NCBI GenBank assembly: GCA_008632985.1
Contig: QPGO01000246.1
Location: forward strand, 62,001-97,737
Reading direction: 5' to 3'
From: Psammoneis japonica
Taxonomy: Eukaryota
DNA length: 35,737 nt
Shown here: piece by piece, positions 2,801 to 32,684 of the stretch
Position numbering within the stretch: the first letter of the stretch is position 1
Layout of the letters: each line of letters opens with the position of its first letter
Translations under genes and position numbers: made by a program
Notes under the pieces: generated by a model
Told to the model about the DNA's origin: nothing
Seen by the model: only the letters and a program-made list of their open reading frames with translations
Database searches by the model: none

Positions 2801-3064
2801 TAAGGATAGGGCGATCCAAAACTTCAAATAAAATCTATAGATACGAATATCCATGTAGCATTTTGTAACCCTGGTTCTTCTTCAATGTCGGTCAAGCGTC
2901 CATTCTACACAATTTCTGGTAGAAAATATACCTGGCCGAACTCTCCACCATTTTCAATTTGCTGCATGCAGCATGCCGCCACCTTTCGGCGAGCGGGAGT
3001 CGAAACCCGAAACCGCTGCAAAACAACCCATAGCAAACAGCAAACCACAGCCAACTCAACCAAC

Positions 3065-3268
3065 ATGGACACTGCCAAAGACGTAACCGCCAAGACGGTG
3101 AATCTTCCGGTAAAGGTTACGGAACAGGTGGTTGACTGGGGAAAGCACGGACTTTCGACGGGGGCAGATTTTACTTCGGATACCGTTGACGCAACGACCA
3201 ACATCGTCAAGACGCCATTTGACTACATTGGCGACTTTTTTGACAGCATCTTTAACTGCAACAAGTAA
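3065..3268 (+). CDS. Small hypothetical protein (67 aa, MDTAKDVTAK...)
   Basis: CA-rich leader then CAACATGG; codon usage like the host genes; amphipathic-looking sequence; GT-rich 3' UTR-like tail. Confidence 0.55.
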   Translation: MDTAKDVTAKTVNLPVKVTEQVVDWGKHGLSTGADFTSDTVDATTNIVKTPFDYIGDFFDSIFNCNK

Positions 3269-3637
3269 TCAAGAAGTGAGGCTTTTGATTTTGAGCCGTG
3301 TGGTTATGTGTGTATGTATGAGAAAGTGGATTAAGATTGATGACGGCAGCTTTGTGGTTTGAGGTGTCCAAGACGCTTTGGTCGCAAGCTGTGGCATGTC
3401 TTTCAGACTTCGAAACTCTAAAAAGTACAAGATATGTTAGAGAGAAGTTAGTCCGTTTCTATTTAGAATCTCAGCAATCGTTACCGCATTTTCTGGGCGA
3501 AAATTGAAGCTTCAAAACCACATGGATCGAAATTGTGAGCAGAACTTGAACCTTTTCATGTTTAGTCAAAGAAGCTACTATTCGTACTCACAGGTTTTGC
3601 TACTAGTATGATTTGATATGGACTACTTGTCAAACAA

Positions 3638-3855
3638 TGGCTTTTCTCGAATCGTCTCTCCAAGAAACAAAATGAAGAGAAAGCATTTTGTGTGTCTACA
3701 GAGCCACGAAAGAGCTCGACACACCAACGATTCGACGTGAACTATGCGCCAGATGAAGGCTTTATCGAATTGTTTCTCCAAGAAACAACTCAAAAGCAGT
3801 TCGTGTGTGTCTATACAGAGCCATTTGAAAAGCTCGACACTTGGAAGCGTTCGAA
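3638..3855. repeat. Degenerate two-copy direct repeat (~118-bp period) downstream of the 3871-4780 gene
   Basis: ctctccaagaaacaa...tgtgtctacagagccacgaaagagctcgacac (~3657-3722) recurs as ttctccaagaaacaa...tgtgtctatacagagccatttgaaaagctcgacac (~3773-3840). Confidence 0.7.
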
Positions 3856-3870
3856 GTAACTGGAAGCACT

Positions 3871-4780
3871 TCAATAGTCAATGACGCTCATGGCACGCCA
3901 GTCGCCGTTCGATTCTTCCAAATCGAAACGCTTGAACTTTTTCGTGGGAGGCTCGTCGAGGCTGCTTTCGCTGTCCGAAGCAGAATCAGGACTGGGTTGG
4001 GTTTGGACCTCGGCAGCAGGACGCTTGCGCTTGGGCGGACTCTTCTTGGTATCGTTGCGTGCCGTACCACGACGAGTAGTATTCTTCTTGCGACCAGTCC
4101 TCTGCTTGACCGGGCTAAAATCAACCGAAGAATCCTCGTCGTCCTCTTCGTCTGAACTGGATTCGCTTTCGGTATCCTCGTACACGGTCGTCTTGCTCTT
4201 GCTCGCGACTTTGGGTTCTTCTTCCTCGACCGACAAGTCGTCGTCCTCCGAGTCGCTCAAGTCGGACTTGTTGGGACTCTTTTCCTCAAAGGAGGCCTCG
4301 AGTTTCTCCTTGATGGAAGAACCGAGAGGTTTCGCCTCCTTCTTGACAAGCACATGCTTGCGTCCATCAAAGACAATGGGTTTCGTCTCACCCTTTGGCG
4401 TATAGTAGTACTTGGACGTTTTGTCATTGAGAGTGGCGGGATGCAAGGTCTTGCTCTTGTCCTTTTTCTCTTGAATCTATAAACAAAAAAGAAAAGAGTA
4501 GTGAGAGGCATGTTCCATGAATCAACGTAATAGCGACAGTACCACGACTTACGTAGACATCAAACCCAATGTCGTCTTGCTTCTTGCCACGCTGAAGCGG
4601 TAAAGCCCTATTGTTGCGACGTTTTGGAATGTTCGACGTAGAAGCCTTGCTGCTCTTCTTGTTGGTTACATCCTTGAGAGCGCGTTTCGTTTTGCCGGCA
4701 GTGGCAGTAGTACTCGCGCTACGCGCATTGCTCCTCGTAGAGCTCCTTTTGGTACGAGACGTCTTTGCGGGGGCGGCCAT
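3871..4780 (-). CDS. Hypothetical, probably nuclear, low-complexity basic/acidic protein (~277 aa), 2 exons (4780-4553, 4476-3871)
   Basis: ACCATGG start (MAAPAKTSRTKR). GTAAGT donor and TTTATAG acceptor join DVY|IQEKK in frame. K/R clusters (PPKRKRP) and D/E/S tracts. Confidence 0.75.
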
Positions 4781-4905
4781 GGTGACGGAATGACTATGAA
4801 CAATAAAGCAAATAGAAATCATTAAAGTGAGTGTATTCTCGAGCGTTTTAGAGGCGTCAATTCCAAACCACAGAGTCAATTCGCAACGCCATCAAAACGC
4901 GCCGT

Positions 4906-4915
4906 GGCGGGAAAA
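4906..4915. promoter_or_regulatory. Possible E2F-type site (GGCGGGAAAA) upstream of the 3871-4780 gene
   Basis: Matches the TTTSSCGC consensus on the minus strand, ~125 bp upstream of the ATG. Motif match only. Confidence 0.3.
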
Positions 4916-5291
4916 TCGGTTCGGGTCGAAGCAAACTCGATTTGGCAACGCCCACTTCTAAAATCTCGATAGCTTACCTATTGTATCGATAAAAGAGAGG
5001 TCGATGCGTCGTTGGGAATGTATCCAACAGGTGCTTTGTGGTTGCGGGACGGCAAGAAAGGTCTTTGTCAACGCGGCGTCGCAAAGATTGTGATGGATTT
5101 CGAGCGCGGTCACGACGACTGACTCCCGCGGGATAAGTGTCCTCAAGTCGCGCGAATAGCGCGAAAGATCGTATGCAAAAATCACGTAAGTAGAAATTAC
5201 GTAGATAGGTACTAGCGGGAGTTACACGTGGACTCGCCCTCCCATCGCACAACAAAACACGGCTCATCCATCACACTTTGTGCGATTCACC

Positions 5292-6434
5292 ATGATGCTT
5301 GTTCATCGGCGGCGAGTGACGGCTCTTGTAGTCATGGCGGCAATGGTTGCTGCACAAGACTACAATGCTCCAGATTATCCAGATTACCAAGATTATGCCG
5401 ATGGATACGCCCAGGATAATCTCTATGCCGATTATGCAGAAAAGCATCAAGAAAAGAAAGGCGGAGGGTACGTAAATGACGTTTTCTTATTCAAGGAAAT
5501 TTGATTTTCGTATGTATCTTTGGATTTTTATAGTAAATGCAGCCCGCATTTTTCGTATTGATTATCGGCACGCGATCTTTCCACGCGTCATGACAACATC
5601 GGCACGACCATCAACTTGACCAAGAAACAGTGACTAAGGATGTCAATGAACTTCTGCAACTAGTCTTAAACTTCTTGAACGCACAAGAAAGTAGCCACTT
5701 TCGTCGTGGGAAGATCACGTCGCTGACACTCGCTTTTTCTCTCTTTGTTTCTCAAACATATATCATCAATTTCAGCGGCGTTGGCATGGGGAAATTACTG
5801 CTTTGCTCGGGAGCTGCCTATTTTGCGGGTGGCAAGATTCAGTCGGGACGGGCCCTGAAAAAGCTAAAGGCCAAGTTCCAAAAGGAGCAAAAGGCCCTGT
5901 ATTCCCAGTATTACAATGATGTTTACAAGCTCACGGAGCAAAACCAGGAATTGACTTATACGGTGGAACAGCTTCAAGAAACACTCAAACAGACGGAACA
6001 AAAGGCAGAGTTGGAAGCCCTGCAACGGGATTATGAAGAATTCAAACAACCAGATCTTGACGGAGACGACAGGATCAGTCGTGCAGAGTTTAACATGTAT
6101 GTCAAAAACTACCTGAGCAATTATCCTGGCCTGCAAGAGAAGGACTATCCCAAGTTTGAAGACTTTGATCATGATGGAGGTAAGAACGATTGCACCGTAC
6201 CGCATGCCTTGATTCCAATTCAACTTATTCATTTTTCTTCTCTCTGTTCAAGACGGATATGTTAGCTTTCAAGAGTACGCACAACAAATGGCACTGCAGG
6301 TTAAGCAAGCCGAAAAGGAAGCGGCCGAAGTGGGTGGTGTTAAGGAAGCGAGCAAGGCCCAAGCCTTGCAGGATTTGTATGAAGGCACAACAAAGAAAGA
6401 TTCACTTCAAGATTTGTACCGACAATATCGCTAA
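5292..6434 (+). CDS. Signal-peptide/TM/coiled-coil protein with two C-terminal EF-hands, 3 exons (5292-5467, 5776-6179, 6253-6434)
   Basis: EF-hand loops DLDGDDRISRAE and, across the 6180-6252 intron, DHDGDGYVSFQE. GT-AG introns in consistent phases; TAA at 6432-6434. Confidence 0.85.
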
Positions 6435-6590
6435 AAGAAACAGTATACGAGTACAAACCAGCGTATGCTGTAAGCATATTATACAGTATCGCAACAGTCG
6501 ACAACTACTACTAAACCCACAACACTATAGCGCAATAATTGCTTTTGAAGCAACCGTCTATATTTGAACTCCCAAACTTCACCTTCAACC

Positions 6591-8623
6591 TTAGTACATT
6601 TCTTCTCTCTGCCTCGGAGCGCACTTGATAATATCATCCACCCTCAGAATCATCTCTGCCGCCTCGGACGCACTGAGCAGCACTTGCAGTTTCGACTTGA
6701 AACTCTCCATGACTCCCAACTCCTTCATGTCTCCAATCGTTCCATTGTACATGTCGAGTCCGTACGAGCTCTTGCCGGACGCATGAGCCGCACGGAGTTG
6801 GGTCACAAGCTCCGCCGAATCGTATCCGCCATTGTCGGCCACAATGGCCACCATTTGGCGGAGTGCCTTGGCAAAGGCCGTCATGGCAAGGGCCTTTTTG
6901 CCGGGCGTCGACTCGACGGCACGATCAATGGCTTGAGCCATGATGATTTCCGTACAACCACCACCGTAAATAGTGCGTGGATCCTTGACGGTCGAGGTTA
7001 AAATGCAAAGAGCATCGTGGAGGGAGCGCTCGGCTTCGTCCAACAAGTGAGAGGAGGAACCGCGCAACACAATCGAACAGGCTTCTCCTGATTTGCAACC
7101 ACCAAAACGAATGACCTTGTCTTCGCCAATCATGACCTGAGTTTGACATGAAAAAATTGGGAGTGAGTTACAACAACTCTATAGAACTCACACAAAACAA
7201 AAACGACAACGACGACCGTTCGCTTACTTCTTCAATCACTTTGCATTCACCCAACGTGACAAGTTCGGGATGATCAAAGGTACTGGCAACTTCTCCCCCC
7301 GTCACGGCCGCAATACGCTCCACCCCATCAAAGTCGGCGTGTTCAATCGCCATGACGCCCCGTTCGGCAAAAATGGATTCGGGCAAATTGTAAATCAACT
7401 GCCGATTGATGAAAACGTTGCATCCGTGATTGATGATTTTCTCACACTTTTGTTTCATCTTGTCCTGGGAAAAAGATATACAGTGAGAATATTGCGTAGA
7501 GAGAGAGTGAGTCAGTACTGTTAGAACTATGCGGCACAATACGCTTATCTCAAGGGACAACTTCTGCTCACCTTTTCGGCCTGTTCAATCTCAGCCACCT
7601 TGTTCATGCTATCCACCTTGACGCGACTGCCATAAATTTTGATTTTATCCGTATCCATACTCGTGTTGGCAATGAGAATCTTGGCATTCTCCATCTTGTG
7701 TGGCTGCCCGACACCGATCGACTTGTTGAGCAAGAATCCATCCTCGAGATAGGAATCCCGCAGGGATCCTCCAGGAATTTTCAAGACTTGCACGTGATCC
7801 AAATTGTTGGATCCCTGCAAACGCAACACGGCATTGACGGCCAATTCCGAAAAGTGTTTCTTGTCGTGCGTCAAGAGTTTGGAAGAAAGAGTCGTTTCAC
7901 TAATGCGCAACAAGTCTTGACGGAATTGGGAGGGGTCCTTGGAATGGTCCGTCGCGGCGGCTTCCAGGGCCTTGCGGGCATGAGCACGAGCCAAACGCCA
8001 ACCGGCCGCAATCGTCTGCGGATGAATGCGCTGTGCGACCAACTGCTCTGCTTCGCGACTACAAGATAGATACAGTAGGAGATATAGTATTGTGAGAGAA
8101 TCAATCAATCATTGCAGAAGAAAACACAAAACACAATCAGTATATATATCTACTACTCACAGCAACTCCCCACAAAGTACCGCGACACTGGTGGTTCCGT
8201 CTCCAACTTCATCGTCTTGTACCTTGGCAATATCCACCAAAATCTTGGCGGCCGCGTTATCAATCACGACGGATTTCAAAATGGTGGCGCCGTCATTGGT
8301 GACCGAGATTTCCTGTTGGGATTGAGGACTGACAGACTGCAAAATCTTATCCATGCCCTTGGGACCCAGCGTCGTTTTGACCAAGTCGGCAATCGCAATG
8401 GCACCGACAAAACTAGACAAACGAGCATTTTCGCCCTATTTGAATAATAAAAAGAAGAGTACGTTGAGATGAACTTGCGCTAGTACAGCGAATCAGAGGA
8501 GAAAACACGTGCTTTCTCACCACGCGCATCATAAAACGCGTGACGAAATCGCTTCAGCCACAACGACAATATCCAACAATCTTGATTTCCACATACCTTG
8601 TCGACACTGGTGCCTTGTTCCAT
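6591..8623 (-). CDS. CCT2: T-complex protein 1 subunit beta (CCT-beta), 5 exons (8623-8597, 8435-8161, 8058-7572, 7464-7228, 7136-6591)
   Basis: [83 protein letters not shown]; canonical splice sites. Exon 1 (MEQGTSVDK) is the least certain. Confidence 0.95.
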
Positions 8624-8834
8624 ATAAGCTGCTCCATGGTTGCGACGATTTCCTTGTTGTTTTCAAATCAAGCAGTGCTGTTGGTGGAATGTAATGGCGG
8701 CGAAAGTCGTGCGGCTCGCGGATCTTTGTGATAGTTGCGCGAAGTCGCAAGTCCACGCGATTCGAAATCAGATTTGGTTTCGCGTGCTATTTGGTCCGCA
8801 GAAGTGATCGCTATCGCGATCGATCGCATCGATT

Positions 8835-11800
8835 GCGGTGATTGGCATTTTTCATTCTAAAGATAAGAGACGAAATTGGCGGAACTTTTCAAAATGTTTG
8901 TCGCCTCAAAGCAAACTAAAGCCCAATGACAGCAATCATCCTCTCGATCATCCACGTCCACCAACAACAAGTGGCAGAGCAGCAAGAAGTGAAGAAAGAA
9001 GAGAGACCTCTCTGTGATGGTGTGCAAAGGAGGGCAACTTTCTTGCACACTTTCTCAAAGTTGCCCCTGCAACAAAATCAACCATGATGATGTGCACACC
9101 TCATGATGATGTGCACACCTCATTGGTGCAAGCTCAGATGTTCAACCAGGCAAGACAGCAGCTCATGAACTTTTTTCAATGATGTGGTGCTTCCTCACAT
9201 GCAAGTCTGGCCTGCCCCAACCCAAGCTGATCTCTCCTCTTGTTTGCGCAAGAGTGGACAATGTTTTGCCGTTTCATGCAGCAGAGCATTGCAGCACAAT
9301 GACAACAGTTGAAACACACTGCAGTGCACACAAGGCTGTCAAAGTCCTGGGCTGATCCTGCCTTTGCCCCTGTTGTTGTGCCATGCAGGGTGCACGCACA
9401 ATCCAGCTTTTTTGAGGTTGAAAAGGGCTGGAGAAGAAAAGATGCTGCAGAGCGGCTGGCATCAGCCCCTGCTGTGCAAGCTGGGCTCTCTGCTGGCACG
9501 GTTTTCATCCTTGACTGTCTTTTGTTGCTGAAGCATCTTTTGCTGTGTGCAAGAAGCTTTGTCTCCTCTTTTCAGAGAGAGCCGCCTTTTTGTGTGTGCA
9601 GTGGCCATTGGACCCGGCAACATCATTGTTCTGAGAGAGGATTCTGGTCTGCCACTTGTTTGCTTAAAATAAAACAAGTTGCACATGTGGAACAAATGTG
9701 ACAAAGCTTGGTCTTTCCTCCTCTGAGAGACAGAGGAACCAGCCGGCCACAAAGATCACAAAACACAATGCTCAATGCTCTCTCTTCTCTTGCCACTCCA
9801 AAGAGAACATGTGCTCATTTTGAAAATTGCACAGCAGTGCATTTGTGCACTCTGATGTTGTGCAGCCAGCTGGCACAAAGAGTTTCAGTCTTGTCTCACC
9901 ACTTTCTTTGTGCGCTGCTTCAGACAGTGTGTGTGTGCGGCTGCCAGGGTGGGACACAGGTGAGCTGACAATGTTTTTTTGGCCAGGGCAGTGTTGTGCA
10001 GCACTTCCAACAAACAACTTGAATTCCCTGCCCTGTTCTTCAAAAACTTTTGTGCACAAGCTGCGTGCCAAAGATCACAGCAATGTGCAGCCATGCACTC
10101 AGTTGGTCAGAGATGCCAGTGGTGTCAACGAGTGTGTCAATGAGGGCCACCCACAATGGAAACAAGCAGCATGTCTTTGTCCACAACAAGCTCTGGCAGC
10201 TTGTCCACATTGATGGCTTTCAGCTGAGCAAGCTGGGAGGCTAAGATGCACAAAGGGTGGATGATGGCACAACAGAGGACATGCCGCCCCTTTGACTTTG
10301 TCATCTCAAAATCAAGAAATGAGCTGGCAGCCTCTTGGCATCTTCACAGAGTGACACACTTCAAGGTGTGACACATCCATGGGCCTGGACTCTGGCCTTT
10401 TATTGCAGTGTGTTTTTTGTGTGGTTTTTGTTTGTCAAGGTTGCCAGCAGCTCCACTGCTTTCACCAGTGTCAAACATCATGACACCTCTGAAGTTCTCC
10501 AGGTGCACAAATTGCACTCTTTCCACCTGGCAGCTCCTCCTTTTCATCAACACAGCAAAACAGACACAGCTTGCCTGCAGGCACATGACACGTGCACATC
10601 TGGGTGGGCTTGCTGCTGCACCCTGACCCTTTGCATGTCACAATTTCTGCACCCTGGACAACCCTTGTGCTTCTGGCACAGCAAAGTTGGGAGAGCAAGC
10701 ACTTCCAGAACCCTCGCTCTGCATGCACAGCTGTTGTCATTGTCAGTGCTCAATTTTTCACTCAACAACCCTTTGCCAGGCATGGCACCACATCACTGGA
10801 AATGACAGCTGCTCCCCCATCTGTGCCAATGTCTTCTGCAAGAGCTTTGCGCAGCTCTTTCCCAGTCTTCTGTGAGAGCAATGCTTTGCAAGCAAATCCG
10901 CTGCAGTTTTTCGCCACATCCAACAACTCCTCTTGTGGACAAGCGTTGCTTCCAAAGGGAGAGATGCACCATGGCCATTGTTGCTGGATCATCAACCCCA
11001 CCAAATGTTGGGTGGCCCAGAGTTTGGCCGTCATGCTCAGCACCTTTGTCTTTTTCAAATGACAAGTGCCCCCACAATTTCATGTGCAGAATCTCCACCA
11101 CAATCTCAGCAATCTTTTGCCGACCAGTGCAAAGTTGACATGTCGTCATGGGATCTTTCATTTTAAAAATGGGGGTGTCTTTGATCACACCACCATCTGG
11201 CCTCCATTTGGGCCAGCGCACATCAAACAATGTGAGCTGCCCCGTGCAAAGCCATTGAGAGCCAATGGCCATTTTTGCAACACAATGGTCTGCCTGCACT
11301 GGCGTGGAGACAGTTGGGACAATGTCTTTTCCCTGTGGGTCATGTTCTTCCACCACACGCCTCACAAGATTTGTGTGAAAAACCACTGTGTCAATTGCTC
11401 AGCCCTCACTCAGCCCAGCATGCTTTCTGGGCTTGCTCTGCATGGTCTGCTGGACTTTGGTTTTGCATGCCACTGTTTGGGCTGCACGAGCCAACATCAT
11501 GATTTGCATCTCTTGGGTTGGTGATTGACATTTGCGCTCCAAAGATCAGAGACAAACTTGGCAAAACATTTCAAAATGTTCATTGCCTCAAAGAAACAAA
11601 CAAAAATCCTGAGTCCATCCATCCTCTTGATCATTCACGTGTGGGTGCAAATCTGACAAACATGACGACAATGTTTGCTGTGTCCATCAAATGGGGGGGG
11701 GGGCAACAAAGCAGCAAGCCAAAAGCAGCGAGCAAAATGTCTGGCGCAAAGGGCTGTTTTCTCACTTTTTCAAAATTGCCTGTGACAAAATCAACCATGT

Positions 11801-13310
11801 GCATGTCTCATCAGTGCAAGCTCAAATGCCAAGCTGGGCAAGACAGCAGCAGGAGCCACGCTGGCATTTTCAAGAGGTGCGCACTTCCTTTTTTCACACG
11901 CGGCTCTCTCCGTTGTGCAAGAACTCCTTTTGGTGCAGAAAGTTTCAGCGCTGGGGTCAATCTTTTCTTTTTCAATGTGCCCTGTGCATGACCCAACAAG
12001 CTGGCAGCTGTTTTTGAAATTTTGGAGAGGGACAGAGACCAGACGATGGTGCGAGACAGCATTTGGGCTCAGCTCCCACTGGCAATGCAAGATGGGCTTC
12101 TCTGCTCACAACCTTTTTCTATTTTGGCTGTCTTTGGCTGCTGTTGTGGCTCCTTGCTGCCTGCCACCACCACAGACCTTCAAGTCAACAAGCTCTCTTG
12201 CTTTTCATTGGAGAACAGAGCTGCTTCATGTGTGCACACTTCCATTGGGTCCTGTGCTGTTGCTCAAAAAGAAATTTCTGGTCTGCTGCTCACTTTTCAA
12301 CAATGAAGAAAGTTGTGCCATTGCATGTTCAACAAGTGCAAACCCTCTGACAGAGCCAGCAGTCTCTAAAAACAAAACACAGCTCTCTCTTTCTCTCTTC
12401 TCACCCTTTTGGAGATGGCACAGACACACACATTTTGAAGATTGCACAGTGGCACATTTGTGCCCAATGAATGCTTGGCTGCAGCCCAAGTTTGAATCTT
12501 GTCTTGCCATGTTTTTGAGTGATGCTGCAGAAAGCATGTGTGCAGGACAGGACACAGAGCCATGGCTGACACTTTTTTTTTGCAGGCAGTGTGATGGGCC
12601 ACTGCAGCTCCACCAACAACTTTAAATCCCTGCGCTGTTGTTCAGAGACTTCTGTGCACAAGCTGTGCATCAAAGATCACAGCAGGGTGCAAAGCTGCGC
12701 ACTCTGCTTCTTTGCTCTTGGCTCTGGTGGTGCTGGCAATCATGTCCTCACCAATGTTCAAAACAATGGTGTGCAAGCACGTGCACTGCTGCTCACATTT
12801 GTTGGTCACAAAGGCCTTGGTTGTGGCCCAATTTTGGCTTTTATCTTGCTTTGTCTTTTCAAACTCTGCTGGCCACAGAAGTGTGTCATTGCAGAGAACA
12901 CAACCCATGCTGTGCAAGAGCTTTGTGTTCCTCTGTCAAGAACCAAGCTGATCAGTGTCACACACAGGAAGTGATGGGTGCAGCCTCACCTGAGCACCAT
13001 TGTGGCCTCCTGTTTTCTGCAGCAACTTAGTGTGACAGCACTTTCACTCCCAAAGTGGCCTCCCACCAAGCACCATGTCATGCAGTCTGCACCCATGACT
13101 TGGCTCCCAATGATGCCAATGACAATGATGCTGACAGCAATGTCAATGTTGCTCAAGCTTGTGCCTCCTGCACCATGGATGTGCAATGCCCCCATGGCCC
13201 CAGTCTCATGGCAGACTGGTGGTGTTACCACACCCCCCCGTGTGGCATTCTTTACCATGTGGTCAAGGCCAAACCGGACATTTTCAAGAAATGAACGTCA
13301 TTCTGAAAGA
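8835..13310. mobile_element. TpA/CpG-depleted composite repeat block with two diverged direct copies of one element (copy A from ~8835, copy B from ~11517)
   Basis: Collinear homologous segments: 8838-8905 vs 11520-11592 (ggtgatt...aaagat..gagac...tttcaaaatgtt...gcctcaaag), 9061-9160 vs 11777-11850, 9815-9850 vs 12431-12465, 10026-10085 vs 12628-12685. About 10 TA in 9000-13200 by eye. Confidence 0.7.
9083..9123. repeat. Perfect 19-bp tandem duplication (CATGATGATGTGCACACCT x2)
   Basis: Read directly; single copy at the homologous position in copy B (~11795). Confidence 0.9.
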
Positions 13311-14167
13311 ACGTAGCAGTGGGAACCGCGTGTTGCTGAATTCGAGGAGTTTAGGATGTACATGCAGTAGAGTACGTCGTATATGCGATATACGGCATCC
13401 ATTGACGCCACTTGGTGCTTATGATTTGTAAATTACCCGCAACAATTTAACAAAGCACACCGTGTATCTTTTTGTTCCCACCAAAGCCCATTCTTTGTAC
13501 ACACCTGTTGGTAGCCTCTAGCAACAGATGCTCTGTTCTTAAACACGAACCGTTCTCTCCTTCCACTTCATTCATTTTCTTTGCAGTACAAGTACGATCT
13601 AGATTAGGAGACTACAAAATTTCAATGGACACTACTAGTGTCCATCCTACCGTGAGAGCACGGCTGCCACTATTAATAGCTACAGCCCAAACAACACAAT
13701 CATAGAAGAACAATGTTAACGACTTTCCATTGGATTTGACTGGTGCCTCCTGTTTCCCAAATCGTTTTTCACACACAAAAAGAGTACACAGCCCATGCCT
13801 TGAATAAGGGATGTAGCTGTTTCAACACAAGCAAGCACAATTCTCTCGTTGAACAATACAAGGTACCTACCGTTATTACTCCTTTTTTCAATCCATTCTC
13901 TCCGGCTGCTTGCAATCGCGCTTTATCATCACCTTCTCGTATCTTGCACAGATTGGCCGCAAATTGTATCACTTGCAATGTATGCAAGAGGAAGACATCT
14001 TGGTAGGAACGCAGAGCTCCGATAGGATCTTGGCGAGTGACAATGACCGGAAGCGTCCATTGGCAAAAGCTACTATAGAGTCGTGTTTGGTGGTGGTCCA
14101 AGTGGCCGAGACTGTGTTGATGACTGGGACAATACTTGTTGGCATTGACATTTGGTGTGACACCTTG

Positions 14168-15017
14168 CTACTTCATCTTGTTGGACGGTACTCTTTCAGA
14201 GCTCCGTTTCTTCAGCACAAGCCAGAGCAGTATAGTGGCCACGAGCCCAACAAATGGGATGATTAGCGTTTCTGATGTAAAGTAGGTCCGTTTCATATTG
14301 GCAGCACGTTGTTGTTTCAGAATATCTTGAAGATAGGTTACGATAGTGTCACTCACAACATTATTTCCATCTTGAACAAGGTTGAGAGGGGTCTTGTTTT
14401 GTGTGTTTTTCACAGAGACTGCTTGGGGATACTTTTCTGTAAGCAACTCGACTACTGCCGCAGGCACGAACAAATCGTCACGGCGGCTCCTCAAGGCCCA
14501 ATGCAAAGGCAAGTCTCCTAAGGCATCTTGATGATTAACACCTGCGGGAAATGCATCCAGTAAATGCTTCACAACATCTTGATCCGATCGCGCGGCACAC
14601 ATGTGAAGAGGAAGGGCTCCGTATTTGTCCGTCTCTCTGACGCTTTCAGGGTAAACTTCAAGAATGCTCTCTGTGAGCGCGGATTCCATCGGCTCGCAGG
14701 TGCTGCTGCAAGCTGCGCGCAACAGACTCCACCCAATCTGGTCCTTGGCTCAAACGTCTCATGGACAAATGCTCGGCAAATGCTGAAACATGGGCAGTGA
14801 TGGATTGCAGATCAATGCAGCATGAAGTGGTGGACAGCTCCACATCCATGGAGCTTCAAAGCACGCACATGGAAAGGCCCCCGTCGTTCATTTTGTTGTT
14901 TTTCATCACAACAACTTTGTGAAGATCCGTGTGGTTCCGAATCAAGGTCTGGATCTCCTGGAGTGACTGGTGAGATTGAAGTGCATGCAACAAGGTGGTT
15001 TCGTTGTGTTCCCCCAT
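14168..15017 (-). pseudogene. Ankyrin-repeat protein with a C-terminal TM segment; 5' part degraded by in-frame TGA stops
   Basis: Intact repeats YPESVRETDKYGALPLH, DALGDLPLHWAL, KNTQNKTPL. The same frame upstream reads PLHAALICNPSLPMFQHLPSICP*DV*AKDQIGWSLLRAA, with TGA at 14759-14761 and 14750-14752. Start position tentative. Confidence 0.7.
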
Positions 15018-15478
15018 GGTTTTCAGACTGAAATTGTGCTGTGGCCTGTCGATTGAGACATGACATGATGTGGTTGTTCTGTGGTTGCCCTCTTTTTGTT
15101 CATTGATCAACAAGCATTGCTCTGCAACTGCTGTTTTCTGTTGCCAGTGTACTCTACTCTAGCAGCATGATAGTGGGCCCCTCTAGCTAGCAGAGGGCTT
15201 CTTCAAGGTGATGTCGGATTTGCATTGTTGTCGGCCAATGTCGGCGGCAAAAAACGTGAGATCTTCTGCATGCGCTAACGCGCGCATGAAGTGCGCGAAA
15301 CAATGCCATGAATTAACGGTCAAATAACGCTCATGGATCCAAGATCCAGTACAAAATCAACGTGGCTTTACACGCACGAATCATTTCTCATCGGAACCCG
15401 CTTGCAAGCTCGTTTCACAACGCCGCCGGTTCAGTCACACGTTGTCGCTGCATAACCAATCAAGTAAACAAAACAACC

Positions 15479-16128
15479 ATGGTACGAACGAGAGTGTCGA
15501 GTGATGTTATGGACTGTTGAGTGATTGTTGTCGAGATTGAAATTGTCAGTCACTTCACCATGGTCTGTTATGTTGTCGAGAGCAAGCGTGTCTGTCTGCT
15601 GTTGGATGTCACGTAGTTTCTACGCGCTGATTATACCGAAGCCACGCTGTACGGCATCATACGCACAAACCTCACCTTTCTCGATTCCCTCTATGATTAC
15701 AGTCGACAGGAGTCACGGTGGACGATCAGCTCGTTCATGCCTTTAATGAATTCAAACTTCAGCGTGGTGAATACAAGCTCCGCTACTTTATTTATCACAT
15801 CAAGGACAAGAAGACGATTGTGATTGAAAAGCAGGGCGACCGTTCCAAGACCTATGACGATTTTTGTGCCGAACTCCCGGAAAATGATTGTCGATATGGC
15901 ATTATTGATTTGGAATTTGAAACCGACGACGGAAGGCCAACGTCGAAACTAGTTTTCATCACGTGGAATCCAGACACGGCGCCGGTTCGTCCCAAAATGC
16001 TTTACAGTGGTTCCAAAGAGGCTTTGAAATCGGCCTTGATGGGAGTCGGTATTCATATCAATGCCACGGATCATTCTGAACTCGATTTGGAAACTGCCAT
16101 TCTACCGACCGTCAAGAAGTTTGCGTAG
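15479..16128 (+). CDS. Cofilin / actin-depolymerizing factor; exon 1 is the ATG only (15479-15481), exon 2 is 15703-16128
   Basis: M|STGVTVDD..., LPENDCRYGIIDLEF, KLVFITWNPDTAPVRPKMLYSGSK (ADF-H motifs). GTACGA donor right after the ATG; TTACAG acceptor at 15702. Confidence 0.93.
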
Positions 16129-16765
16129 GCTTGAGTGTTGCTTAGTGTTTTTCCTTTTACTCTTGACGATCGTATGATGTGGGTTTGATAGTCTGTATGT
16201 GTATCATACTCTGTAGCTCAGAAAGGCCGTATACCTAGCTAGAAGCTGGCGTTTATATTGTGTTCTATTAGAAATCCAGAATAGATAATAGCTTTCTCTA
16301 TTCCCCTACGGTAGCTAGGAAAACAGGGAGCTAGCTATGGATACTCTAGAGTCGTCTCAAGGATGAAACTAACTGTTGATCCAATTTATTTTTTCTCCCA
16401 TCACACCGTCTGTCCATCATGTGTCGTTTTACTGGTTACCGCCGTACTTTTTGGGCCGCAACCGCACAAAGACAAAAGCACGAGGAGCGCTCTTGTGATT
16501 TTGTGAGGGGAACAATCGAAAAATGTGAGTGAGCATGGAGTTTGGTTGGGTCGTATGAAAGAGAAAAATTAATTTGACAATGCAAGCAAAATGGTGTTGA
16601 TGAACAAAGAAAATCTGCAGTTGTGCTTCAAGGCCATGGTGATGCGGTACTTTGTTGATATTCAATTCCAAGATTCCTTTTCTGCTACCAATTTTCTATG
16701 CATCAATGGAATTCGGATACTCACATTTTGTGTTTTCCCGCTGTTTTCAGTAAATATCAATAGCA

Positions 16766-17130
16766 ATGCCAGTTACAAGTTTGACGGACCTGAGCGACAG
16801 TCAAAAGCAAGAATTGGTGGCATCACTGGCTTGTTTGCTTTGCGGCGATGATGTTTCGAGCGACAAGATCCAAGCCGTGGCTACCGCTTCGGGCAATACC
16901 GTGAGTGACGCGTGGGCATCCCTCTTTGCCGGCGTTGTCGCGGCCGGTGGTGGTATTGACAAGTACTGTGCCGCGCCCGGTGGTGGCGCGGAGGCGGCGG
17001 CGGCGGTGGCGGTGGCGGAGGAGGTGCCGCAGAAGCTGCAGCGGAAGAAGAAAAAGTGGAAGAAGAGGAGGAAGCCGATATTGGAGGTGGAATGGATATG
17101 TTTGGTGGAGATGATGGCGGTGATTACTAA
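16766..17130 (+). CDS. RPLP1: 60S acidic ribosomal protein P1, with an apparent 1-bp frameshift near 16988
   Basis: ELVASLACLL...KIQAVATASG...WASLFA N-terminal domain. A different frame gives the Gly/Ala hinge and EEEKVEEEEEADIGGGMDMFGGDDGGDY* (TAA 17128-17130). Confidence 0.85.
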
Positions 17131-17158
17131 ACAGTATGTTAGTAAACTGCAATGCTTT

Positions 17159-18127
17159 TTAATCAATATACAATTGCTTGTGCTTGTACATGGGTAGTTT
17201 CTCCTTGTGCTGGTCAAAAATGCGTGATACTTCTTTGCAATACTTGTCGTGCCATTCATTAATGTCCTTGTCGGTTGGGTTCTCAATGTACGGCAGTCCC
17301 AGCGGCTTTCCCCGAGCATAGAGCATCTTGTCGTTTCGTGGAATGGGAAGATAGTACCGTCCCCAGAAGTACGTCAAGGACATTTGCAACTTTCGACTCG
17401 CCGACGCGAGCAGCCCGTGCTTCATGACGGTCAGAGCGGACGTGTTGCCAAACAAGTAGCACGGTACAATGTCGACATCTTGTAGGGACAGTGCCAGCTT
17501 GATGAAGCCTTTGCGACTCTTGAGAAAGAGTCGTTCTTCCTTTCGACTCGATTTAAACAATTCGGCAATGCCACCCACGTACAAGACCAAACAAGCATCA
17601 ATGCCTGTATTCTTAGTAAAGTGCCGAATCAAGCTGGGTTTAGACGCATCAATCAGACCGTAAATTCCCATGACGTGCTTGAGAATGGGTACTTGAAGCA
17701 AGACACGAGCTACTGCCGTTTTCACTCTACATACATCTGGAGGGCACTGCGTAATGGCCGTCATGCCACACAGCGAAAGGACACCATGTGGTTGAAAGGC
17801 AAAAATGTACTTTTTGCCCTGAGCGAGATTCTTTCGGAATTGATCGTCGGTAAAGTCGTGGAACTCTTCTTGGAAATCAAAATAATCCGCCATGGGAGAC
17901 AAGTATTTCAATAAATTGGGACATGCAATTGGGGGCAAAATAATGGAGATAATCAGGGGCATGGCGTAGAGATAGGATCGATACCACAACAACGACACCA
18001 ATGCCGTGACTATGTAGGCGGGTGCAAAATAATACACAACACAAAATGTCGTGGCTATGCACATGCCGATAAAGCAACGAATACTGTGCATCAAAGAGTC
18101 ATCTTGCTTTGCCGTTGATGCAGCCAT
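17159..18127 (-). CDS. DGAT2: Diacylglycerol O-acyltransferase type 2 (DGAT2/MOGAT family), single exon
   Basis: N-terminal TM helices; DYFDF, YIFAFQPHG, GGIAE, RKGFIKLA, IVPCYLFG and GKPL motifs. Confidence 0.9.
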   Translation of the reverse strand: MAASTAKQDDSLMHSIRCFIGMCIATTFCVVYYFAPAYIVTALVSLLWYRSYLYAMPLIISIILPPIACPNLLKYLSPMADYFDFQEEFHDFTDDQFRKNLAQGKKYIFAFQPHGVLSLCGMTAITQCPPDVCRVKTAVARVLLQVPILKHVMGIYGLIDASKPSLIRHFTKNTGIDACLVLYVGGIAELFKSSRKEERLFLKSRKGFIKLALSLQDVDIVPCYLFGNTSALTVMKHGLLASASRKLQMSLTYFWGRYYLPIPRNDKMLYARGKPLGLPYIENPTDKDINEWHDKYCKEVSRIFDQHKEKLPMYKHKQLYID

Positions 18128-18421
18128 GTTGTCGACTTTTCGTTTCACACAACTGCGAAAGCTGTTACCTCTTTTCTGCAACAAAAACGAAAGTGTCGCC
18201 TTGAAAAAAAAAGTGGCGTCGGTCGGTGCGTGGTCGCGGTTTGATGACGTGTCACTTCTCCCGCCATTTTCGCGCGATTTTGCGCAATTTTTGAAATTCG
18301 GAATCTCCCTCCGAGAGAGCTGTCAGGTGAATCCCGTCACGTCGGTCAAGACGGTGGCAACAGAACATTCTCACTTGTCATCCTATCACTGTCACCATCA
18401 TACGATTGCTTCTTGCCAACC

Positions 18422-19828
18422 ATGACACCCATCTCGTCAACACCCGATACGACGCAACAGGAAACTCGTACGAAGACTATTGTCGAGTATCACGCTGGCT
18501 TTGGCAATTCTTTCGAATCGGAAGCTATCGACGGTGCCTTGCCGCAAGGCCGCAACAATCCTCGTCACGTCCCGTACAATCTCTACACGGAACAGTTGAG
18601 TGGCACAGCCTTTACATGTCCCCGTTCTGTCAATCGCCGAACATGGCTCTATCGTATTCAACCCAGTGTGGTGTGTGTGGATGATTTCAAAGAAGCGGAA
18701 TCCTCGGATTATCCAAAGTTCTTTGGTGGTGTCAGCCCCGACGAGTTTGTACTCAATCCATCACCCCTTCGTTGGAGTCCCATGCCGGCAGAACCCAACA
18801 AGGACTTTGTGTCGGGTATGGTGACCATGGCTTCGAGTGGTGACGCCATGACCAAGGACGGATTGGCCATTTCCATGTATTGTTTCAACAACGACATGGT
18901 CGATACGCACTTTTACAATTCCGACGGTGACTTTCTCATTGTACCTCAGCAGGGTTCTATCGAGATTACAACCGAAATGGGAATTTTAAAAGTGAGTCCA
19001 AAAGAAGTATGCGTCATTCCACGAGGCATTGTGTTCAACGTTGCAAAGCTACAAGATGACGAGTCGTCCTTTGCTCGCGGATATGTGTTGGAAGTATACA
19101 AGGGCCACTTTCAATTGCCCGAGCTGGGTCCGATTGGTTCCAATGGATTGGCCAATGCTCGTGATTTTCTATATCCTCAGGCCTCGTTTGTTCAAAACAA
19201 GCAAGACTATCACCAACCGTGCACCGTTCTCAACAAGTACGGAGGGCAGTTGTTTGTCCGTCATGCAAACCATTCTCCCTACAATGTGGTGGCGTGGCAT
19301 GGCAATTATTTGCCCTTTAAGTATGACTTGGAACAGTTTTGTGCCGTCAATTCCGTCACGTACGATCATTTAGATCCCAGCATTTACACCGTTCTGACGT
19401 GCGTCGGTAATGAAACGGGCACGGCTTTAGCGGACTTTGTCATTTTTCCGCACCGCATCATGGCGACCGACGATGATACCTTTCGTCCACCGTGGTTTCA
19501 TCGCAACACCATGAGTGAATTTATGGGTTTGATTCATGGCAGGTACGATGCCAAGGAGGGATTTGTAGCTGGCGGGGCGTCGCTTCACTTGACCATGACT
19601 CCGCACGGACCCGACTCTACCACGTATGAAAAGGCCATTGCGGAGGACTGTTCCGTGCCATCGAAATTTGAAGGTGGATTGGCTTTCATGTTTGAAACGT
19701 CTCATTTGCTCAAACTCAATCCTCGAGTGTTGGACTGTGAGTATCGTGACGTCGAATACTCGTCGTGCTGGCAAGGATTGAAGGATAACTTTCCGTGGGA
19801 GCAACAAGAGCAGGAATATGTAGAATAG
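18422..19828 (+). CDS. HGD: Homogentisate 1,2-dioxygenase, single exon
   Basis: GFGNSFESEA, LPQGRNNP, LYTEQLSGTAFT, WLYRIQPSV, GPIGSNGLANARDF, DHLDPSIYTVLT, FRPPWFHRNTMSEFMG, MTPHGPD, LAFMFET. Confidence 0.97.
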   Translation: MTPISSTPDTTQQETRTKTIVEYHAGFGNSFESEAIDGALPQGRNNPRHVPYNLYTEQLSGTAFTCPRSVNRRTWLYRIQPSVVCVDDFKEAESSDYPKFFGGVSPDEFVLNPSPLRWSPMPAEPNKDFVSGMVTMASSGDAMTKDGLAISMYCFNNDMVDTHFYNSDGDFLIVPQQGSIEITTEMGILKVSPKEVCVIPRGIVFNVAKLQDDESSFARGYVLEVYKGHFQLPELGPIGSNGLANARDFLYPQASFVQNKQDYHQPCTVLNKYGGQLFVRHANHSPYNVVAWHGNYLPFKYDLEQFCAVNSVTYDHLDPSIYTVLTCVGNETGTALADFVIFPHRIMATDDDTFRPPWFHRNTMSEFMGLIHGRYDAKEGFVAGGASLHLTMTPHGPDSTTYEKAIAEDCSVPSKFEGGLAFMFETSHLLKLNPRVLDCEYRDVEYSSCWQGLKDNFPWEQQEQEYVE

Positions 19829-19989
19829 GAGGCGCCGTGAATGGAAGCAGTGGTTTAGAATCTGCATAGAAGTACATTGAATTCAATTGTTGCGAGATGA
19901 TGGGTGGCACATTTTTCTTGTAGAGTTAAAGGAATGATGTAGCTGCACGAGAATATTTCTATCAGCATCCATGACAATCCCCGTGTAAA

Positions 19990-21390
19990 CCATTTTCATT
20001 GACGCACTGTGATTTTCCCTCCGCGTCGTGATCACTGCATCGATTCCGGACAAATGACACAAAAGCGCACCTTCCAAATCAAAGGACACCCCTTTTGTGT
20101 TGCCATCCCATGCTTGTGTGGGTGGAAGCAGGAGTTCACTGAGAGGCTTGGCCACCTCTTTAAGCACCCACCTCTTCCGCCACCATGTGGACAACCAAAG
20201 CCCAATGTTGTTGTGCACTCAAGCACCACAACTTGGACAAGAAGAGTTGCACAAACCAAAAAGAACTGCTGTTGCAGTCATGACAATGGGCACTGTGAAA
20301 GGTTTTCTCCTCTGCACCTTCAACAGCTCCCCCTTCTCCACTGCTTGCTGCACCAAATTCTCAAAAAGGTTGCAAATGGAGGTGGTGCATGCCACTGGCC
20401 TTTCCGGCCTTTTTTTTGGAAGGCCACTCCTCTCAGGTGAGTCAGGAGCTGCAGAGTTTTACACAGACTCAAGCCCACAAAAGGTTGTTTTAAATCTTGC
20501 AAAATGTGCAACAGGCAGCACACAAAAACATCTGCAGCATTCACAATCATGTGAAGAGCACAGCTGTTCTTTTGTTGATTTTGTGACACCCTTTTTTGTT
20601 CAAAAGTTTCTGTGCAGAGTTTGGAGGCCCATGGTGGTGGGAGGAGAGAGTGGTCTGCCCCCCCCCCCTGCTCACACACACAGGGGTTTTTCACTTGTTG
20701 GCTGCTTGCACATTGGGTGGCTGCACTTGGAAGCAGTGTTGCAAATCATTGTGAGCAACACCACCAGAACAAGCCACTGCAAAAGCTGGCTCTTTCTTTT
20801 TGTCAGTGCCATGGGTGCTGCTGTGCATCATGTTGCCAACAAGCAGAGAGCAAGTTTGCTTGCTGTCCACACCATTGTCATCTTTCTCTGGCAGGAGCTT
20901 CGCCCCATGGTCATCGGAGGGGGCTCCAGCCACAAAAGAGAGAGAAAAGAGAGCCTGCTGGAGGTGCAACAGAGGGCAATCATCATGCAATTGAAAACAT
21001 GAAGAAATGGTTTAAAAATTGCATGACTTTGGGAAACAATGCAGCCAGCTTTGCGACGCTGTTTGGGGTCAGGGGGCAGGGTGGAGGGCAAGAGCAAGGG
21101 TGGCAGGCTTCTGCCTGCACAGCGCCACCGGCTGCTTCTTGTTGATCATCAGAACATCATCCTGCCTCCTTGGACGATCAAAATTTAGTTAGGACAAGAG
21201 ATTGAGTTGTTCAACTCAATGTTGTGGCTTGTGTTTGAACTGACATGGCATTTGGGTTGAGCTGAGCTGAGGCAGCCAGGTGCAAAAAGGGGGCTCATGT
21301 GTCACTCCAAAAAATTCGGACATTCGTGTTTCAACGGATCTGTCATTCAAAGATGTCCGTGCAGACATCGGACGACGGAGTTTTGCCAGG
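19990..21390. repeat. TpA/CpG-depleted degenerate block, probable non-autonomous TE remnant
   Basis: About 6 TA in 1.4 kb by eye, all in TTA context; poly-C tract at ~20658; no credible protein. Boundaries approximate. Confidence 0.55.
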
Positions 21391-23628: not shown

Positions 23629-25742
23629 GCTCACCTGTGGTTTCCTCTCATCGACTGCTTTGATGTGAAACGATATGAATAGTTTTGTCGGCAAGATTGA
23701 TTGCTCGCATGACTGCCGGACTGGAGAGATATGATCAACAGAGAGCCGATTCATCGGAACTGGACAATAAGCTAGCCAGTACCCCACAATTCTTTTTTCC
23801 CATAGCATCTCCGTCTCCACTTCTTGTACCACGATTCGTGTCGCCCAAAGAAGCCTACCGGTAGGGGTTTGATGTCGTTCATCTTCTTCTGGATCATAGT
23901 CGGCATCCCTGTTGCTGTCTTCATTTTCTAATGGACTTGACCGCGAGTGTATCAAATGACTGATAGCAATGGTCGATTTCACGAAGACTCCCCAAAACGA
24001 GGCGAAAATGTTATTCCATTTAGCTTCAAGCTGATCTTTGGTCAAGCGTCTTCTGTAGCGTATCCGCGCAATTCAAGGTGGTTGAAATGCTGGATCATCC
24101 ATGCTCAAGATTCAGGAGTACCCGAGATCTCCACACATCTTCGAGGCATTTAAAGCCGGGCACCTCCGCTGACACAAAGAAGGGACGCATAACTTTGAAG
24201 TCAGAACAAGTTCCTCTTGGAAAGTCGAAATTCCGTACAACAGTCCTGAGAACGACGGATTTTGGTGGGTTCACGTATTTCATCTATGTCCTGCGCTTGA
24301 AGATTTAGTCTCTGATATGGACTTTGGATTGCATGGATCGATCTGAACACCAAGATGCTGCAAAACAAAGGCCAACGGCCAACTTTGCACTATTACATAC
24401 AGTAAGCCTTTCTCGTTTTCTCGTATTTTTCCCAAAAATCGCCCCGCTGTATCCCCACCCCTACTGCATTAGAGTCGCAGAACCACAGTCTCTGATTTGA
24501 TGGCGGGGAGGGGGGGGGGGGGCCAATTTTTCAAAATTGATCTTTGAAATTTTCGGGGCGTCGCGGTTCTGTGATCTGTGATGCGAACCCGTCCCATGAC
24601 AGCAGTGTGACCCCTAAACATCTAATCAAAAAATGTTTGCTGTTGTGTGTCAGAGCATCAACAACGACAGACACGAAATTGGAAAATGAACAACGGGCCC
24701 GATCAGACTGAAAAGGGGGCGATTGAAAATGATGGTGGACTGCATGACAACGACACGCCATTGTCTTTTTATGAAGAAAAGCAGAGAATGGGAAATCGTC
24801 GACAACCTCAAAAAAGACTTCAAGTTGCAAATCAAGATGCGAACGAACCTGATGATTCAGAACCTCCAAGTGTGATTGCCACTCCGGTGACTCAAACACT
24901 GACGACGGATGAAGAGACGGACCTTGACACACTTTGGGAGCCCGTGCCGCATGCGCCGACAATGACACCGGATGAGCGCTTTCAGCAAATTGCAGACATG
25001 ATTGCATGTTTGCAGCATCAACAGCTGCTGTCATTTGCTCCTCATCAGAACCAAGATTCTAGCGCGACTGAATCTAACTTGTCGAATGTGGAACAAACCA
25101 TGGGATGGAAAACTCAGACTGTGAGGGCCACAGCGAGCGATCCTCCTGCTTCACTTGCGACGGCTTCCACCCAGAAACAGAACCTGCAACGCAGTCAAAA
25201 GCCAGATCCTCCAGCAATGCAATTTCTGATTGATGACATGCTGCCAAAACTCGATCCCAACTGTGAAGTGCAGAGTGACGATTTGAATGATTGGGTTCAG
25301 GAAAGATTGATTCCGGCTGTGTCTGTCCATCGCGAGGCAGGGACCGGCACGAGAGCTGATTCATCGGGATTGGACGATGGAAAGCCACCCGCCAGACACA
25401 TTGACAATCTCTTTGCAATGGATGCCAATTCGGAATTTCCAGACTTTGATGAAAGGTGGAAAAGAGCTGAGCAAAGGGTGCAATCGCTTTGTGGCAAACG
25501 TGACAGTGCGGTCAACCAGCCAACCACCACATCCAACTCATCCCCCAATCTCCCCGATGCATCAAACGCCCCATCCCAGGCAGCATCGAACAATGAGGTG
25601 ACAGAGAATGCAAGTCAATTTCATGGTGCCACTTGGATGGCTCCCGCAAAATGCACTCCAGCAGATCCCAAGGACATTGACGGCGAGCCCAAAGACGAGA
25701 CGAAAGTCCTGGTCTCTGCTCCAGATCCGGTCACTGCCCATT

Positions 25743-26099
25743 TGTGACAATTTGGCATGACTGTGGACATCTCAGGACGTCCAATCTTCTTAGAATTTCC
25801 ATGTGGCTGAGTTGGACATCGGAAAGGACAATTCAAGTGATGAACTCATGCCGTGACTCTCAGTGCATGTTCTACATGAGTGACATTCAAAGAATGTCCA
25901 TTTTCTGACGTGGCATCATCCAAGATCTTTCGGATCACAAAACGAGAGATTCACTTTTAGATTAGTTCTAGCTCACAATTTCAACTGAGCAGGAGTCAGC
26001 AAGACAACTCATTGCCATTTCACTGGCTTTTAGTGCCTTGCACTGATTGTCAGCAGCACACTCTACAGATGGGACCTGTGTCCCAGGTAGAATCTCACA
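25743..26099 (+). repeat. 5' LTR (357 bp)
   Basis: TGTGACAA...GAATCTCACA; aligns without gaps to 32328-32684. Confidence 0.95.
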
Positions 26100-26119
26100 C
26101 GCTTCCTCTGCGACCTGCT
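26098..26119 (+). other. Putative primer-binding site complementary to the 5' end / D-arm of initiator tRNA-Met
   Basis: Reverse complement AGCAGGTCGCAGAGGAAGCGTG resembles the eukaryotic tRNAiMet 5' sequence AGCAGAGTGGCGCAGCGGAAGCGTG; there is no TGG-type PBS. Confidence 0.55.
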
Positions 26120-26171
26120 TCGCAACTTCGATTTCAAGCCAGCCATTGATCGAGACCCAAGCCATCCAACA

Positions 26172-32284: not shown

Positions 32285-32319
32285 TTTTAGATCAAGTCAC
32301 AGCTTCACCCGACACTTTC

Positions 32320-32327
32320 AAAGGGAG
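32320..32327 (+). other. Polypurine tract
   Basis: AAAGGGAG immediately before the TG of the 3' LTR. Confidence 0.8.
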
Positions 32328-32684
32328 TGTGACAATTTAGTGTGACTGTGGACATCTCAGGACGTCCAATCTTCTTAGAATTTCCATGCGGCTGAGTTGG
32401 ACATCGGAAAGGACAATTCAAGTGATGAACTTGCGCCGTGACTCTTGGTGCATGTTCTACATGAGTGACATTCAAAGAATGTCCATTTTCTGACGTGGCA
32501 TTGTCCAAGATCTTTCGGATCACAAAATGAGAGATTCACTTTTAGATTGGTTTTGGCTCATAATTTCAACTGAGCACGAGTCAGCAAGACAACTCATTGC
32601 TGTTTTGCTGGCTTTTAGTGCCTTGCACTGATTGTCAGCAGCACATTCTACAGACAGGACCTGCATCCCAGGTAGAATCCCACA
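32328..32684 (+). repeat. 3' LTR (357 bp)
   Basis: TGTGACAA...GAATCCCACA followed by the TSD CCATT. Confidence 0.95.

Follow-up and report, generated by a model that had tools for sequence, protein, structure and literature searches.

Erasure of TpA dinucleotides in the two alleles of a single-copy ankyrin-repeat gene of the diatom Psammoneis japonica

RIP of the ascomycetes is a premeiotic, RID/DNMT4-dependent process, which needs duplicated sequence and changes C to T, thereby creating TpA. Leakage of RIP into single-copy DNA in fungi is described in the accessible part of PMC10823647. A process acting on TpA itself is reported for Bigelowiella natans in a 2026 preprint (bioRxiv 10.64898/2026.01.13.699255), the available sections of which describe TpA hypermutation of integrated viral DNA, including a single-copy NCLDV region, at a rate measured in mutation-accumulation lines, and propose adenine deamination as its basis. 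The same sections list host-type Pfam domains among the TpA-poor coding sequences, and these may include host genes affected likewise (10.64898/2026.01.13.699255). In diatoms, DNMT5-dependent CG methylation forms isolated silenced islands over transposons in genomes otherwise unmethylated, according to the portion of PMC9998398 at hand, and copy-neutral LOH tracts of 296, 614, 1644 and 8016 bp are given for Phaeodactylum cultures in the accessible text of 10.1101/2020.11.08.373134. Among the papers listed by a literature search, with most subscription journals outside its reach, none concerned TpA erasure in diatoms.

The window analysed here is a stretch of 35,737 nucleotides of the Psammoneis japonica genome (NCBI GenBank assembly GCA_008632985.1, contig QPGO01000246.1, positions 62,001 to 97,737 of the forward strand). 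A preliminary description of its letters had reported about 495 bp without TA over the 5' half of a host-type ankyrin gene. The allele present in the window is hereafter referred to as W and the allele on contig C361 as H2, and all positions are those of the window. The features needed for the analysis are as follows.

8850 to 13244: TpA- and CpG-erased repeat block, comprising an XPG_I-like ORF family, a degenerate direct duplication and a short dispersed repeat.
13248 to 14653, no strand: island of W that retains 72 TpA, all erased in H2.
13248 to 13970: duplicated DNA, comprising the 3' end of an LRR gene, intergenic sequence and the last aureochrome codons (13883-13966, minus strand), with related copies on C319, on C235 and, in part, at the start of C246.
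14168 to 15017, minus strand: broken ankyrin-repeat gene of about 280 codons, with its ATG at 15017 and its stop at 14168, based on Pfam and the H2 frame.
14168 to 14689, minus strand: frame that remains open in W, starting at an internal ATG (14689), with a predicted product of 173 aa carrying two to three ankyrin repeats and a hydrophobic tail.
14654 to 15149, no strand: TpA-free, CpG-halved and CpA/TpG-rich segment, delimited by dinucleotide counts.
14654 to 14870: tract nearly identical in the two alleles (8 differences in 217 bp, no transversion), a putative product of gene conversion.
14750 to 14761, minus strand: two in-frame TGA stops (14759-14761 and 14750-14752) common to both alleles.
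14807 to 14809, minus strand: Cys codon TGC in W, Tyr codon TAC kept in H2; the TpA loss (at 14808) is private to W.
14870 to 14925, minus strand: indel patch, in which the W frame from the ATG shifts, to stop at 14856-14858.
15018 to 15149, no strand: 5' flank, erased independently in the two alleles according to their alignment.
15150 to 16128, plus strand: unaffected divergent promoter region and cofilin/ADF gene, marking the right edge of the erased domain in both alleles.

W has no TpA between those at 14652 and 15150, as the preliminary description had stated; the flanking genes, with 3.9 TpA per 100 bp, would lead one to expect 19.4 over 496 bp (P about 4e-9). Three stretches of the window rich in genes have TpA-free gaps of at most 220 bp. 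The segment carries 22.2 CpA and TpG per 100 bp (vs 13.9-15.3 in the flanking genes), and its CpG content is halved with some left (n=15; 3.0 per 100 bp vs 6.2-6.3). The 75 codons in 14654-14878 include no Tyr and seven Cys, whereas the 3' part of the gene (14168-14653) has 21 TpA and five Tyr in W. The quoted frame (FQHLPSICP, stop, DV, stop, AKDQIGW) was reproduced on the minus strand, and no terminal repeats or transposon ends were found bounding 14654-15149, in agreement with the same description. At the domain edge, 15150-15190 holds six TpA in 40 bp, and about 30 bp of the surrounding stretch are absent from H2.

It had been asked whether exactly this segment is duplicated or carried by a transposable element. 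A DNA search of the genome with 14654-15149 gave two matches, namely the segment itself and, as the sole other match, the allele on C361 at 87%; the next protein match to the ankyrin gene is 44% identical. Colinearity of C361 with the window extends from 2910 to 20024, with a divergence from W of 1.0% and 2.2% in the flanking genes. Among the contigs of the sequencing run X1 that were listed, the depths sum to 58-67 over 13614-15618, and a single W-identical contig, spanning 13125-14406, has a depth of 28.8, about half the summed depth; these depths are consistent with two alleles, though they give no copy number. The two DNA runs that hold the stretch represent one sample, which may be the source of the assembly, so that the suggested comparison could be made with the other haplotype, and no related strain was seen; no RNA run holding the stretch was listed in the search of sequencing runs. 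The alleles are nearly identical at 2950-4200 and 15950-17450 (two differences each), which resembles LOH. C361 also carries about 16 kb of TpA-poor, CpG-keeping DNA (approximately 25300-41332) with no match in the window or in the 10 kb before it.

The H2 allele is erased over the entire ankyrin gene, which retains 2 TpA in 849 bp and lies within an erased block of 8933 bp and 16 TpA that runs from the repeat block to the cofilin promoter. Thus, the division into a TA-free 5' half and a TA-keeping 3' half, as originally described, is correct for W and does not hold for H2. At the junction 13244/13248, W is without 2.5 kb found in H2, partly LRR-gene DNA. Of the 72 TpA of the W island, 67 lie in ungapped aligned pairs; none of these is kept in H2, and 58 have been changed to CpA (33) or TpG (25), with no strand bias (p=0.36). 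Among 53 CpG of the island, 31 have become TpG or CpA in H2 and 16 are kept. In the flanking genes, 402 of 419 TpA and 632 of 659 CpG are kept between the alleles. The island also carries 103 differences of other kinds in 1388 bp. By comparison with two outgroup paralogues, all TpA differences (10/10) and all CpG differences (3/3) were found to be derived in H2; the direction proposed earlier, TpA to CpA or TpG and CpG to TpG or CpA, is thus visible between the alleles and polarised. The other changes were assigned by the same outgroup to H2 in 21 cases and to W in 9 (19 vs 7 over 290 sites, P=0.03, after four rows beyond the end of homology at 13970 were dropped). Relative to the states common to both outgroups, the W island itself has kept 8 of 15 TpA and 6 of 16 CpG.

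The TpA process itself is already known from the B. natans preprint, and the contribution of the present locus is the allele-level evidence for the loss of a host gene. As in the accessible account of B. natans, TpA gives TpG and CpA on both strands, the change is confined to regions, single-copy DNA can be targeted and the long-term signature is low TpA with high CpA and TpG. Unlike the spectrum given there, which is almost only TpA, the locus shows CpG decay (31/53) and the 103 other differences; a longer time scale and methylation may have added these changes. The targets in that account are viral and the rate was measured in living lines, whereas here only the end state is seen, in a diatom and a host-type gene, with near-complete erasure and a state that differs between alleles. 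The ankyrin gene has many distant relatives in its own genome, unlike a target of viral or foreign origin; a past transfer of the gene is possible, no orthologue having been found. The CpG decay fits diatom methylation islands such as those described in the available text cited above. However, deamination of 5mC cannot convert TpA to TpG or CpA.

The signature is not confined to the genome of P. japonica. Two metagenome contigs of another eukaryote (L084:1-3500 and L085:1-1700), with a cofilin 69% identical, were found to carry a TpA-erased, CpA/TpG-rich block with a gag-type frame, recognised by eye, which ends about 650 bp upstream of the cofilin gene. Within the window, a copia-type element at 25743-32684 (RVT_2, gag_pre-integrase, SH3) has its TpA erased and much of its CpG kept, unlike the block 8850-13244. 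In the latter, 10150-11450 belongs to a TpA-erased repeat family, also present at L041, L042 and L043, with an XPG_I-like ORF (E 9e-5, below the curated cut-off), and 8849-10089 and 11531-12691 form a degenerate direct duplication with a spacing of about 2.6-2.7 kb, the best pieces of which are about 80% identical. An island at 19950-21050, erased for TpA and CpG, is mostly absent from the C361 allele and has two weak matches elsewhere.

The assignment of the erased DNA to an ankyrin-repeat protein gene is based on a Pfam match that reaches into the TpA-free part above the curated Ank_2 cut-off of 27.3 bits. The frame 14171-14878, read through with X at the two TGA codons, matches Ank_2 in three stretches (E 3.4e-17, 63.2 bits), and the open part alone matches in one (E 5.3e-8, 33.8 bits). 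The erased part also holds the register of 30 repeats from paralogues in the same genome, the Pro and PLH columns of that alignment being fixed by the search pattern and carrying no evidence. In the column before the Pro, these repeats have Tyr at a frequency of 0.43 (13/30), Asn at 0.23, His at 0.17 and Phe at 0.10; W has Cys there, which is not among the five commonest residues. A hydrophobic stretch is recognisable by eye near the C-terminus. The ATG at 15017 and the PFPCACFEAPWMW stretch share a frame in H2, whereas W reaches that stretch only after a frameshift; the pieces of the gene were therefore one frame. An intron in the erased part was considered and is unneeded, since the H2 frame runs on from the ATG through the site of the W frameshift. 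H2 has its own frameshift at approximately 14841, further frameshifts towards the 3' end and a TAG stop, whereas the 3' part of W comprises 193 codons free of stops and frameshifts, a contrast that either selection on W or the hypermutation of H2 may explain. A single-copy host-type ankyrin gene has thus been pseudogenised by the process, and the earlier proposal that the process reaches host-type genes and can inactivate them is borne out by the allele comparison and by the dead gene of H2.

No orthologue was found among 167 candidates of near length; 1044 longer candidates gave only seven distant matches (25-33% identity), and the best 150 representatives gave only multi-repeat proteins of at most 43% identity. 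The ancestral 5' sequence is therefore not readable from a relative. Three queries for an exact record of the protein returned none. In 45 metagenome loci with a cofilin relative, most of them short and uninformative, an ankyrin match was present in none and cofilin-HGD linkage in two. The best named matches of the neighbouring DGAT2 gene are from the diatoms Seminavis (58%) and Pseudictyota (57%). A formerly longer 3' end of the gene had also been suggested in the preliminary description. Beyond the TAG at 14168 the frame does stay open to 13769; the suggested extension is nevertheless contradicted, as its residues 68-95 match the C-terminus of aureochrome (19/31 identical) and a Pfam search of the frame past the stop gave no match and no ankyrin domain.

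An explanation for the loss of only one half of the gene in W is suggested by the divergence between the alleles, which falls sharply over that half. Transversions number 0 in 217 bp at 14654-14870 and 55 in 1388 bp in the island (P=4.5e-4), and amount to 2.9-3.4% in the repeat block; four-fold sites of the flanking genes (15/697 transversions) give an expectation of 4.7 in the tract (P=0.009). The tract probably extends across the indel patch at about 14870-14925 to about 15017, and differences outside TpA and CpG number 8 in 354 bp as against 103 in 1388 bp in the island (P=1.3e-4). At 14654-14870 the alleles have the same stops and nearly all TpA outcomes alike. In the 5' coding part, one CA/TG discordance is seen where about 7.7 are expected of independent losses (P=0.004), an expectation that assumes the TpA density of the 3' part and that independent losses would leave about half of the sites discordant. 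Because the discordances are so few and both stops are common to the alleles, it is concluded that the TpA losses in the 5' coding part, like the stops, had a single origin.

Dense allele differences begin at 14653, the place of the first TpA of W. Since the divergence of the alleles steps down where the TpA content changes, 14653 is probably not a targeting boundary. A short near-identical tract inside diverged DNA is the pattern by which gene conversion or LOH is recognised, and other near-identical tracts, of 1.2-1.5 kb, lie in both flanks. The short tract and the replacement of one allele by the other recall interhomolog recombination in diatoms; the Phaeodactylum events, as given in the accessible text, were watched in culture, whereas the tract is deduced here from divergence, and a mitotic and a meiotic origin are alike possible. 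The direction of the conversion, from H2 to W, is suggested by the single coincidence of boundaries at 14653, no intact allele or orthologue having been found with which to polarise the tract. The frameshift private to W at about 14870-14925 must post-date or flank the tract.

The 5' flank has a different history. Here the alleles are 21.7% diverged, and 129 aligned bp hold three CA/TG discordances together with four CpG and one TpA lost only in W; changes on the W side number 8/129, compared with 21/1388 in the island (P=0.002). These changes, with the private loss at 14808, imply that W was also targeted directly, for which a second event is needed. The reading towards which the evidence leans, by a modest margin over all else, is that of a regional mutator active in silenced domains, with a domain in H2 that covered the whole gene and a later conversion of the 5' part of W by H2; meiotic recombination in the population would give the same mosaic.

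The strongest competitor, which is considered rather unlikely, holds that the 500 bp at the 5' end formed a small target domain of their own, erased once, either in the common ancestor or in W followed by copying to H2, and that only the H2 domain later spread. It would account for the independent mutation of the W flank and the loss by W of a TpA that H2 keeps, and single-copy DNA also makes up other small TpA-free islands in the window. Another erased allele pair, the start of C246 and C319, is equally low in transversions and discordances, which is consistent with shared erasure and silent on how the sharing arose. The excess of other changes derived in H2 points the same way, since collateral mutation would explain a part of the divergence step without conversion. 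However, a part already dead before the alleles split should have drifted in both branches, and at the W-branch rate about 10 other changes are expected in 217 bp where two are seen (P=0.002), or 17 in 354 bp where eight are seen (P=0.012). The adjoining flank, supposedly in the same domain, is 13% diverged, and copying from W to H2 would require the end of the tract to fall by chance on the boundary of W itself.

Duplication of the target was one of the triggers put forward in the preliminary description, by analogy with RIP. The locus shares with RIP dense dinucleotide-specific transitions on both strands, repeat-rich blocks and a spill that kills a neighbouring gene. RIP makes TpA by C to T changes, whereas TpA is removed here by A to G changes, and RIP needs duplication, whereas the erased DNA has no duplicate in the assembly, which may be incomplete. 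As both the polarity and the duplication rule fail, the process is not RIP. A homology trigger resembling RIP, in which the cue is duplicated DNA, or pairing with a silenced homologue, and the ankyrin gene is reached by leakage of mutation, is a separate proposition and is judged improbable. The gene does adjoin a segmental duplicate and repeats, leakage of RIP into single-copy DNA is described in the accessible part of PMC10823647, and a silenced allele is a homologous template that could explain the independent flank mutations of W. Nevertheless, the erased ankyrin DNA is without a DNA paralogue, while the duplicated neighbour at 13248-13970 keeps its TpA in W, as do the homologous stretches at C319 and C235; duplication as the trigger is therefore not supported. 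The islands 1650-2700 and 24500-25700 are also TpA-erased with one assembly match each and no allele match. These paralogue negatives are to be read with an assembly that may be incomplete and with erasure lowering the sensitivity of the search, and the duplicates of 13248-13970, at only 68-78% identity, may be too diverged to serve as a test. The genome has an aureochrome-type bZIP-PAS gene. The LRR_6 gene and the convergent aureochrome 3' end are duplicated at several loci (L005, L006, L013 and L047), which carry varying lengths of aureochrome; the LRR gene bodies at the duplicated loci are TpA-poor and TpA is back near their 3' ends. At C319, C235 and the start of C246, too, TpA is again present close to the LRR 3' end.

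Still less probable is the view that W was once fully erased independently of H2 and regained the TpA-keeping island 13248-14653 by recombination with an intact allele. Erased DNA does lie on both sides of the island, and erasure of the repeat block and 5' flank of W was in part independent of that in H2 (8-23 discordances per kb), yet a separate homogenisation of the 5' coding part would still be required and the left edge of the island is the natural erasure edge at the paralogous LRR loci. An assembly artefact, an intron or an unrelated insertion is very improbable. Identical runs longer than 31 bp (such as 14665-14715) could hide a haplotype switch, and the one sequencing run that covers most of the stretch may come from the source sample. 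However, TpA is missing here from both haplotypes, a pattern that a switch would not produce; X1 contains 0.97 of the words sampled, W-specific 31-mers touching the segment forming 16% of the query; and the erased part continues the ankyrin register.

Under the favoured reading of a regional mutator followed by conversion from H2 to W, both strands would undergo changes of TpA to TpG or CpA, accompanied by decay of CpG. Erasure would have spread in H2 from the neighbouring repeat block into the ankyrin gene and on to the cofilin promoter, and a local silencing domain, the other targeting cue raised at the outset, is consistent with the continuous erased block of this allele. W would have kept an intact allele, its own domain presumably ending at the end of the LRR copy, as at the paralogous loci. 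An interhomolog gene conversion of 217 to about 360 bp, with its left end at about 14653, would then have overwritten the 5' coding part of W with the erased sequence of H2; the 132-bp 5' flank of W would have been targeted on its own, and both alleles would have kept losing CpG and the last TpA. The target may be chosen by a spreading silencing mark, either CG methylation or heterochromatin, and the chemistry may be adenine deamination at TpA, as proposed for Bigelowiella. ADAT2/TadA-like genes are expected in any case for tRNA editing, and the nine genome matches to the deaminase family PF00383, one of them TadA-like by motif (L101), are no proof of the enzyme. One locus, L103 on C79, has a deaminase-family domain in one open frame with a putative 2-oxoglutarate/Fe(II) dioxygenase domain, recognised by eye.

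A broader proposition is offered tentatively, being less probable than the favoured reading. A silencing-guided, duplication-independent A-to-G DNA mutator of diatoms may spread from repeats into unique host genes, one allele at a time, and may then fix the loss on both homologues, through frequent interhomolog conversion and trans silencing, from a dead allele into the 5' end of a live one. If true, this would constitute a way in which an epiallele becomes a fixed null in a diploid organism, for which the literature search gave no precedent.

The locus may be regarded as a natural experiment on what the TpA mutator recognises. Since the same unique DNA is erased in one allele only, sequence, foreign origin and copy number are not the whole signal, and position in a chromatin domain is the remaining candidate. 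The results also carry a warning, as a sharp change in TpA content within a diploid assembly can mark a site of recombination instead of the limit of targeting. With this allele pair, chromatin position can be told apart from sequence and copy number, and the targeting rule is open to a direct test. For the diatom, the cost of such a system is the loss of a host gene, and the two alleles suggest a path from a lesion in one allele to the homozygous state.
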